NCBI GenBank assembly: GCA_043728155.1
Contig: JAYTMX010000014.1
Coordinates: 1 to 29,237 of the forward strand
Source: a bacterium
Lineage (GTDB): Bacteria > Patescibacteriota > Minisyncoccia > Phycocordibacterales > UBA5272
Length of the DNA: 29,237 nt
Direction: 5' to 3'
The number at the start of each line of letters is the position of its first letter. Position 1 is the stretch's first letter. The position numbers and the translations under genes are program-made. The notes beneath the pieces are model-generated. The model ran no database searches and was not told the DNA's origin. It worked only from the letters and a program-made list of their open reading frames with translations. Below, piece by piece: positions 20,561-26,052 of the stretch.

Positions 20561-20592
20561 TTGACACACTAGGGGGGGGGATGTGCTATACT
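20561..20592 (+). promoter_or_regulatory. Promoter with G9 tract in the spacer
   Basis: TTGACA 20561-20566, 20-nt spacer containing G9 (20572-20580), TGcTATACT (hexamer 20587-20592). Confidence 0.7.
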
Positions 20593-23588: not shown

Positions 23589-24194
23589 ATGAATGACAAG
23601 TTTACAATGACAACAGGACAGGCCCATGAGTTCGCTATGGCTTGTAGTAGAAATGGAGTTAGCGCTGCTAATATCAAGTTTCTCTCAAAAGGGGAAAATA
23701 TTAAAAAAGCCCTAGCTTTTCTTGGAAGAAAAAGTGAGGTCGCTGATTTTACAACCGCCACCTACTGGCAAATTGATACCTATCGCAAGCTCTGGGTTTC
23801 GTCAGAGTTCACGCAGCGGATTACTACTGCGTACCCAGACCCAATTCTACATCGTGGTCTTGAAGGAGTAACCCACTTTCCATCCAAATCTAGCGATAAC
23901 AAAAACATTGCTGAGATGGGTGGTATGGAGGAAGTGCGCAAGCACGCCTTCACTCCAGATCAGATCGCTAATTTGCGTGACAAGCAAATGAGTGGCGAAG
24001 AGGGTCAACTCCTCACTAACGGTTACTGGAATTTGTTCTACGTAATCGGAAAGGGTGGGGTACTTTTTGTGGTCGGCTTGTACTGGGATCGTGACAACGG
24101 CGAGTGGGACACGCACGCGTGGCCTTTGGACGAGCATGGCGACTGGCGCTCTGACCGTCGTGTCTTTCGCAATACTTTGGTTTTGGAGACTTAA
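23589..24194 (+). CDS. DGR target (variable) protein with C-terminal VR
   Basis: 201 aa; 113 nt near the 3' end match the TR; SD AAAGGA; no signal peptide seen. Confidence 0.93.
   Translation: MNDKFTMTTGQAHEFAMACSRNGVSAANIKFLSKGENIKKALAFLGRKSEVADFTTATYWQIDTYRKLWVSSEFTQRITTAYPDPILHRGLEGVTHFPSKSSDNKNIAEMGGMEEVRKHAFTPDQIANLRDKQMSGEEGQLLTNGYWNLFYVIGKGGVLFVVGLYWDRDNGEWDTHAWPLDEHGDWRSDRRVFRNTLVLET
24060..24172 (+). repeat. DGR variable repeat (VR)
   Basis: 100/113 identical to the TR; all 13 mismatches are at TR adenines. Confidence 0.97.
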
Positions 24195-24520: not shown

Positions 24521-24633
24521 GTACTTTTTGTGGTCAGCTTGAACTGGAATCATGACAACGGCAAGTGGAACACGAACGCGTGGCCTTTGGACGAGAATGA
24601 CGACTGGAACTCTGACAATCGTGTCTTTCGCAA
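24521..24633 (+). ncRNA. DGR template repeat (TR)
   Basis: AAY-rich copy of the VR (30 adenines): GTC AGC TTG AAC TGG AAT CAT GAC AAC GGC AAG TGG AAC ACG AAC GCG TGG... Confidence 0.97.
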
Positions 24634-24637
24634 CTTT

Positions 24638-25056
24638 TTAATTTCTCTCCAGATTTTTATCTGGAGAGTTTTGTTTCTCAACCTGACCCAGCCAACCACC
24701 CAACATCTTACCTATTTCATCCAATGGTACACTAAGTTTTTCATATTTATTATTATCTATTGATTTACTTTCCCACAGTACCATGAGCAATATCTTAAGT
24801 GTATCTAATTTCCTTATCGCAGTTTTTAAATAAATGACCTTGTCTAACTTTTGCACAAAAGAAGCGCTAGCGCACATTTCAATCAACTCTACAAATAAAT
24901 TATCTATTTTTAAAGCAAGAGTATACCTGTGTGTTCTCGGCACAACTCCGTATATGCCATACCAAAAAGTATAAACATTTTTAATTTTAATTAAAATAGG
25001 TACGAGTTTCCCTTGCAAAATTCCTGGGGGGGGGGGGTAATATTATGTGTATGCAT
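24638..25056 (-). CDS. avd: DGR accessory variability determinant (four-helix bundle), out of frame with ATG 25056 at a C12 run
   Basis: HRYTL and DEIGKMLGGW motifs. The ORF from TTG 25018 is open. ATG 25056 joins it (MHTHNITPPP(P)GILQGKL...) only with 10 or 13 C. Confidence 0.85.
24645..24668. other. Perfect 10-bp hairpin 3' of TR
   Basis: CTCTCCAGAT-TTTT-ATCTGGAGAG; lies inside the last codons of antisense avd. Confidence 0.8.
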
Positions 25057-26052
25057 AGTTTTTCTAAAAATTATTTTTGTTTATCTTACAATAATATCAT
25101 ATCCACAGAAAATCTTTTAGAAGCCTGGAATATATTTAAAAAAGGTAAGAAAAATAAATTAGATATAATAGAATTTGAATTTAACTTAATGAATAATATT
25201 TTAGATTTACACAATAGTCTTAAAAATAAAGATTACAAACATGGGAGTTATGAACATTTTAAAGTTAATGATCCAAAGCTGCGTGATATACACAAAGCGA
25301 GTGTAAGGGATAGATTATTACATCATGCTATCTATAATATATTGTAGCCACTTTACGATAAAAAGTTTATCGCTGATTCGTATAGCTGTAGAAATAACAA
25401 AGGCACATATAAAGCTATAAAAAGATTTAAAAAATTTACAAGATGTGTAAGTAATAATTATACTACTCAGTGTTACATATTAAAATGCGATATTAAAAAG
25501 TTTTTTGCGAGTGTTGATCATAATATATTAATTAAGATATTAGAAAAGAAAATAGGAGATAGAGATATTTTAGAGTTATTAATTAATATTATTTCTAGTT
25601 TCGGCCCTGGATTGCCGCTCGGTAATTTAACTTCGCAGTTACTAGTAAATATCTACATGAATGAATTTGATCAATATATAAAACATAACTTAAAAGTAAA
25701 ATACTATATCAGATACGCTGATGACTTTGTTTTTGTTTCAGATGGTAAAAACTACTTAGAGTTAGTGCGTCAAAAATGCGAAGCATTTTTGACGCTAAAC
25801 TTAAAACTAAGTTTACATCCAAAGAAATGCTTTATCAGAACTATATATTCTGGAATAGACTTTTTAGGGTGGGTGCATTTTCCAAATCATAGAGTGCTGA
25901 GAAATACAACAAAGAGGAGAATATTTAGAAGAGTGAGTGAAGAAAACCTAGCTAGTTATTTAGGGTTATTAAAACACGGTAATGCACACAACATAGGTGA
26001 AGAGATTTTAGAAAAGGTAACTTGTAAAAAGTGTGAGAATATGTTAATATAG
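25045..26052 (+). pseudogene. DGR reverse transcriptase with a single in-frame TAG (25345-25347)
   Basis: One frame throughout: RDRLLHHAI, *PLYDKKFIADSYSCR, KCDIKKFF, GLPLGNLTSQ, YIRYADDF, GIDFLG; 335 codons. Confidence 0.93.

Follow-up and report, generated by a model that had tools for sequence, protein, structure and literature searches.

The junction between avd and the reverse transcriptase (RT) gene of a Patescibacterial DGR of B3 type carries a homopolymer, G12 on the plus strand and C12 on the minus strand, which we judge, with reasonable though not strong confidence, to be a slipped-strand contingency switch. The repeat at this junction probably turns the DGR on and off at random, the switching itself being inferred. 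A contingency locus had been put forward in the initial annotation, and that reading is now supported by the presence of a repeat at 142 of 155 related junctions, the turnover of its unit, the leader frames that run into it, the matching extensions of homologous proteins, and the G11, G11, and G13 tracts of relatives.

The DGR locus and its homopolymer

The window, that is, the whole stretch of DNA analysed (29,237 nucleotides), is one whole contig of a 72-contig genome of 579,291 bp with a GC content of 32.5%. The features on which the argument first depends are listed below.

23589-24194, plus strand: DGR target gene, with the variable repeat at its 3' end
~24060-24172, plus strand: variable repeat (VR), at the 3' end of the target gene
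24521-24633, plus strand: template repeat (TR), compared with the VR
24638-25018, minus strand: avd core frame, Pfam bAvd; 126 aa when counted from TTG 25018
24645-24668, plus strand: terminator-like hairpin, a 10-bp stem followed by a T-rich tail
25026-25037, G12 on the plus strand and C12 on the minus strand: homopolymer, a hypermutable repeat tract by its length, found in the sequence, in the X1 contig, and at related junctions
25051-26052, plus strand: DGR reverse transcriptase (RT), alternative ATG 25045, RVT_1 E 8.4e-24

The locus is a complete DGR in the order TR-(avd)-RT and of architecture B3, the criteria for which (a DGR-type RT, an adenine pattern between TR and VR, and an avd inverted between TR and RT) are all met. 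All mismatches between the TR and the VR, read by eye, fall at adenines of the TR, and the avd core matches bAvd (PF22296) with an E value of 7.1e-15 and 55.9 bits, above the Pfam gathering cut-off of 40, with orthologues at 88% and 74% identity. The same TR-(avd)-RT order is reported for 90% of CPR DGRs by Wu et al. (2018, PMC5758913). The terminator-like hairpin, situated 12 nt past the TR and within the last avd codons, probably ends a separate TR RNA before avd, so that the RT probably has a promoter of its own. An Rfam search of the region returned no match.

Across the 579,291 bp of the genome there is one G/C run of at least 12 nt and there are ten of at least 8 nt, while the number of runs of 12 expected by chance, calculated from base composition, is about 4e-4 per genome; G12 meets the criterion for a hypermutable length (a G/C run of about 8 or more). 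The locus was also found in four public runs of one study, X1 to X4, in the form of assembled Logan contigs. The run of twelve guanines first reported at 25026-25037 was confirmed in the sequence and recurs as G12 in the independent X1 contig, which spans the tract without a gap and so excludes, for this MAG, the homopolymer assembly error against which the initial annotation had cautioned; the X2 contigs break at the tract. In the X3 contig, whose approximately 25 nt covered on each side are identical to the locus, the tract is G13, the predicted in-frame state, and in the Logan contig of X4, a more divergent strain, it is G11. G11 is likewise carried by a relative at 92% Avd identity and by the avd orthologue at 88%, and G7 by that at 74%. 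Tract length hence differs among close relatives (G12 here versus G11, G11, and G13), as read from contigs of related strains and not from one population. A scan of metagenomes for near-identical strains yielded none above 66% RT identity, and identity of 80% or more on both flanks was reached by no more than three pairs of loci.

Predicted reading frame of avd through the tract

On the minus strand, the tract would be read as part of avd if translation began at ATG 25056, and two further features bear on this reading.

24991-25056, minus strand: OFF-state leader frame from ATG 25056, reading MHTHNITPPPQEFCKGNSYLF and then a stop codon
Alternative predicted Avd N-termini: MHTHNITPPPPGILQGK... 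or MQGKLVP...

At C12, the frame from ATG 25056 indeed ends as was first described, giving a stub of 21 residues. When the tract was rebuilt at 8 to 15 C, only C10 and C13, the two lengths that had been named from the outset, opened a frame of 138 or 139 residues, which begins MHTHNITPPP(P)GILQGKLVPILIK and continues into Avd. A change of one unit is therefore enough to alter the frame, C10 and C13 opening the Avd frame from ATG 25056 and the other rebuilt lengths not doing so, a statement that concerns the sequence only.

The reservation that initiation at TTG 25018 might bypass the switch has been met only in part. It is not excluded, given that AGGA stands 3 nt upstream (a short spacing), and with such a signal Avd could be made at any tract length; the codon itself, which in the sub-clade is TTG, CTG, GCG, or CAA, is not conserved as a start. 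A TTG before the conserved Pro was also considered as the general start of avd and was ruled out, the codon being TTA, CTA, or CTG in many loci. ATG 25056 exists because the ATGCAT at the RT start is palindromic, and the need to encode the RT may by itself suffice to maintain it. The extension of avd, being antisense, overlaps both RT codons and the -10 hexamer described below, so that conservation of the leader is confounded.

A repeat at the junction across the clade

Related loci were gathered by a genome search, by scanning genome contigs with an RT profile, and by an RT scan of metagenome contigs. In all 159 loci with a readable junction, avd is adjacent to and divergent from the RT. Among the 155 distinct Patescibacterial DGR junctions, 142 carry a repeat at the head-to-head avd/RT junction and 11 are repeat-free, one T7 and one inverted C8 junction having been excluded from the 142. 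The repeat is, on this count, a clade-wide feature and not peculiar to this genome. A G run is present at 123 of the 155 junctions, ranging from G6 to G13 with a mode of 9-10 (62% are 9 or 10); (GA)n or (AG)n is found in 14 loci, including (GA)9-17, and (CT)n, (GT)n, (TTCG)9, (CTGG)9, and (TGATTGC)11 in a single locus each. G/C runs of at least 7 nt number 123 in 8.7 kb of junction versus 4 in 598 kb of flank from the same loci, an enrichment of approximately 2,100-fold.

Along the RT tree, one type of repeat gives way to another no fewer than 18 times, and one three-member RT clade (L045/L116/L069) holds three different units, TTCG, CTGG, and TGATTGC. This turnover implies that the conserved trait is the presence of a slippery repeat and not a specific sequence. 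All unit lengths seen (1, 2, 4, and 7) are non-multiples of three and hence frame-shifting. In the L153 junction, (GA)10 is followed directly by G11, and in the L076/L125 clade the pyrimidine strand is on the RT side, as (CT)10 and C8.

Which gene reads the repeat

In most loci, the repeat adjoins the first conserved Avd residues, ...PPP-R-L-L-P-V-L..., a placement by which it is taken to be anchored to avd. The repeat-free relatives indicate where avd would otherwise begin: in 11/11 of them avd starts at an in-frame ATG that precedes the Avd core by 3-20 codons, often within a CATATG or ATGCAT palindrome common with the RT start. An open frame led by ATG runs into the repeat in 141/142 repeat-bearing loci versus 56-82% at antisense-RT control positions. 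This leader frame is in register with avd in 41/142 repeat-bearing loci (29%), which, set against the 11/11 of repeat-free loci with an in-frame ATG, gives a Fisher p of 3e-6. The loci are related and not phylogenetically independent, and p-values of this kind are overstated.

The in-frame share was also considered as a proof of translation through the tract and had to be rejected as such, since 29% is about one third (binomial p 0.29). With the share at chance, the frames by themselves do not distinguish a switch that is mostly OFF from a repeat left unread by avd. No ATG, GTG, or TTG lies in the interval from the repeat to the conserved Avd Leu-Pro in 76/142 loci, and 50/142 have no usable avd start at all in their present state.

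Four public Avd homologues at 70-83% identity (P0009, P0026, P0027, and P0033) possess the in-frame extension predicted here, among them MHTPNNITPPPANVQGK|LVP and MNTTNITPPPTKLQEK|LIP; the locus of P0009, the former of these two, carries G11 and is in frame. All the comparative evidence agrees with ATG 25056 as a start of avd that depends on the frame, the true N-terminus of Avd remaining inferred. Taken together, the 5' leader that is kept open, the repeat that shifts the frame, and the occurrence of natural genomes in each of the three phases form the usual signature of a translational contingency gene, which supports ATG 25056, the start named in the initial annotation.

In 45/142 loci (e.g., L017, L030, L051, L099, and L114), the stretch from the repeat to the conserved N-terminus of the RT contains no ATG, GTG, or TTG, and the repeat there seems, from the position of the codons, to lie within the RT's own coding start. 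A downstream avd start is present in 27/45 of the loci without a downstream RT start versus 39/97 of the others.

The proposed RT promoter and the RT gene

On the plus strand, the same tract falls between two hexamers of a putative RT promoter.

25013-25018, plus strand: TTGCAA, -35-like hexamer of the proposed RT promoter, inferred from sequence
25038-25043, plus strand: TAATAT, -10 hexamer, abutting the G run

The proposed layout is TTGCAA-19-TAATAT-7-ATG 25051, with the G run inside the spacer; the tract may accordingly be read as the spacer of a leaderless RT promoter as well, an inference for which there are no transcription data. TTGCAA, which on the minus strand forms the avd codons TTG CAA, is retained as such or as a close variant in the sub-clade loci L002, L023, L080, and L117. 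The arrangement Gn-TAnnnT-7 nt-ATG in the RT frame occurs in 24 loci including this one, with T1, A2, and T6 invariant and the middle positions variable, as would be anticipated if a -10 element were driving a leaderless mRNA here. In 16/19 sister loci, a TGGYAA hexamer (antisense of the avd Leu-Pro codons) lies 16-18 nt from the -10.

Genome-wide, 17% of 531 long ORFs have a TAnnnT whose end lies exactly 6 nt ahead of their first ATG, versus about 5% at other offsets and 1.2% for internal ATGs, from which it appears that leaderless starts are common in this Patescibacterium; smaller TAnnnT peaks occur in this genome at offsets 0 and 11. With its -10 lying 7 nt before ATG 25051, versus the genome-wide peak of 6, the RT mRNA is probably leaderless. 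The distance of 19 nt to the proposed -35 is suboptimal by the criterion of 16-18 nt, and a general promoter scan did not call this promoter.

The conserved start of the RT is ATG 25051, and the ATGCAT start is common to L002, L174, and L175. On account of this start, the G run was dropped as a Shine-Dalgarno mimic 7 nt before ATG 25045, a candidate also contradicted by the run-to-ATG distance in relatives (from 4 to more than 50 nt) and by the replacement of G with other units. The RT of the window has a single in-frame TAG, at 25345-25347, in an alignment column where relatives have Tyr; the Logan contigs from X1, X2, and X3 show TAC (Tyr) instead, which indicates that the dominant populations possess an intact RT. 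An alternative genetic code for the TAG was rejected on account of the Tyr column, the TAC in three runs, and the other genes, which are intact under table 11. Position 25338 is G in the X1 and X2 contigs, and the breaking of X1 contigs near 25338/25345-25347 suggests a polymorphic site.

Proposed mechanism

On the minus strand, the tract would sit in a 5' coding extension of avd, and translation from ATG 25056 would yield Met-His-Thr-His-Asn-Ile-Thr-(Pro)n and reach the four-helix core of Avd only at C10 or C13. The C12 frame stops after 21 codons, so that the consensus state would be Avd-OFF, or leaky by way of TTG 25018. Seen from the plus strand, the tract would make up the -35/-10 spacer of a promoter belonging to the RT itself. 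A slip of one base would consequently shift the frame of avd and at the same time change the spacing of the RT promoter, and C10 would give both an in-frame Avd and an RT promoter spacer of 17 nt. A useful rate of slippage, the use of ATG 25056, the reality of the promoter, and the dependence of DGR mutagenesis on the state of the tract are all inferred.

A bolder proposition, which we advance only tentatively and would not ourselves wager on, is that hypermutation is held under a two-key lock formed by the tract. Tract length would set both the frame of avd and the spacing of the RT promoter (and in sister loci the frame of the RT too), only a minority of lengths (here C10) would be active, and more than 90% of Patescibacterial B3-type DGRs would be stochastically silent in most cells and active in few. 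If true, this would amount to a second-order switch of evolvability, which was not found described in the DGR literature searched.

Alternative explanations

It is conceivable, though in our opinion unlikely, that the tract is a promoter element and nothing more, in which case avd would be expressed constitutively from TTG 25018 and the length of the run would tune the leaderless RT promoter and perhaps a divergent avd promoter. The length of a poly-G/C or TA repeat does tune transcription in other phase-variable promoters, and such an element would be in keeping with the AGGA just 5' of TTG 25018, the in-frame fraction equal to chance, the 24 loci with Gn-TAnnnT-7 nt-ATG, the total spacer of 16-18 nt in 16/19 loci, and other genomic runs of G8-10 between TTGACA-like and TATAAT-like hexamers (C14:20572, C20:3615, C42:233, C42:3258, and C51:92). 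It cannot, however, accommodate (GA)9-17, (TTCG)9, (CTGG)9, and (TGATTGC)11, which at 18-77 nt are too long for a 17-nt spacer, nor the half of the G-run loci that have no -10 beside the run; a pure promoter-spacer model was set aside for the same reason, as it holds only for the sub-class whose -10 abuts the run and fails for the repeats of 18-77 nt. The supposed constitutive start fares no better, as 76/142 loci have no avd start codon downstream of the repeat, all repeat-free relatives use the upstream ATG, and within the sub-clade the TTG is not maintained as a start.

A fixed signal that does not switch, whether a rigid homopurine/homopyrimidine insulator of overlapping divergent promoters or a poly-Pro/poly-Gly linker, with tract length merely drifting slowly, is to our mind improbable. 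The narrow distribution of lengths (62% being 9 or 10) would suit it, as would the fact that most alternative repeats are also homopurine (GA), but TTCG, CTGG, GT, and the 7-mer are not, and the only common property is a repeat with a length that is not a multiple of three. A coding linker, moreover, would stay in frame, yet 71% of the loci are out of frame. No length heterogeneity was seen within a population, albeit in assembled contigs only and without raw reads, whereas the tract is already of different length in relatives whose Avd identity is 88-92%. Least credible of all, and close to negligible, is that the observation is one of artefact or decay, G12 having been miscalled from an in-frame length or the DGR, with its TAG-bearing RT and frameshifted avd, being in the course of dying. 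Homopolymers are error-prone and the X2 contigs break at the run, but X1 reproduces G12 gap-free; the in-frame TAG in the RT of the window is TAC in the contigs of X1, X2, and X3; and neither the confinement of VR/TR differences to TR adenines, which is the mark of DGR activity, nor the clade-wide conservation of leader frame and repeat is what decay would leave behind. The slipped-strand switch at the avd/RT junction accordingly remains the reading that we prefer.

Comparison with known systems

Intragenic contingency loci built on poly-G/C or tetranucleotide repeats are known from Campylobacter jejuni, Neisseria meningitidis (hmbR, hpuA), and Haemophilus influenzae (lic1A, mod). The junction described here resembles them in having a repeat of non-multiple-of-three units just past a start codon with the functional domain downstream, in the occurrence of genomes both in and out of frame, and in a 5' leader frame that is preserved even when out of frame. 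Unlike in those pathogens, the gated gene serves a mutagenesis machine, of which it is a component, instead of surface structures or modification, the bacteria that carry it are ultra-small, environmental, and host-dependent, and the switching is inferred. Repeat-spaced promoters are equally familiar, as in the (TA)n within the overlapping divergent promoters of H. influenzae hifA/hifB and the poly-G/C spacers of Neisseria porA/opc and Bordetella fim. As in hifA/hifB, the repeat lies between -35 and -10 at a junction of divergent genes and one tract can affect two genes; unlike in any of these three systems, the tract also codes for the gene on the opposite strand, and the promoter that it spaces is leaderless, as predicted without transcription data.

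DGRs are the most extreme natural protein diversifiers, and to our knowledge the cellular limits on their activity are largely unknown. In gene order and orientation, in the Avd and RT families, and in its adenine-specific TR/VR pattern, the present locus is like the B3 DGRs (PMC5758913) and DGR clade 2 (Roux et al. 2021, PMC8144416); unlike in those published descriptions, the junction repeat adds a layer that had not been described. Word searches found no mention of homopolymers or of "promoter" in Wu et al. (PMC5758913) or Roux et al. (PMC8144416), no "phase variation" in the latter, the one of these two in which that term was sought, and nothing relevant on such switches in Paul and Eren (2022), and full-text searches of the literature found no paper linking DGRs to repeat switches. 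What is new is that a repeat of contingency type targets the DGR machinery, and does so across a large clade of Patescibacteria; the mechanism itself is of a known kind. To this are added the tract as the spacer of a leaderless RT promoter, which is inferred, and the absence of the RT TAG from the contigs of three runs.

Many DGRs appear inactive in a given sample, according to Roux et al. (2021, PMC8144416), and a heritable and reversible repeat switch at avd/RT would, if true, explain such patchy activity. The state of a DGR could then be read from metagenomic reads as tract length modulo three, and ultra-small symbiotic bacteria would be seen to rely on contingency loci, which are familiar above all in host-adapted pathogens.

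Other G/C runs in the genome

Five of the ten longest G/C runs of the genome, of 8-10 nt, are those already named in C14, C20, C42, and C51, the one in C14 (the window) occupying 20572-20580. They sit between TTGACA-like and TATAAT-like hexamers with spacers of 17-20 nt and may be further length-tunable promoters; the runs at C42:233 and C42:3258 share flanks and so may belong to a repeated element. Two others, a C8 at C59:5496-5503 and a C9 at C28:4358-4366, can each pair with a G run close by (G7 and G5, respectively) and have a T-rich tail after them, and from this predicted pairing they look like intrinsic terminators with homopolymer stems.
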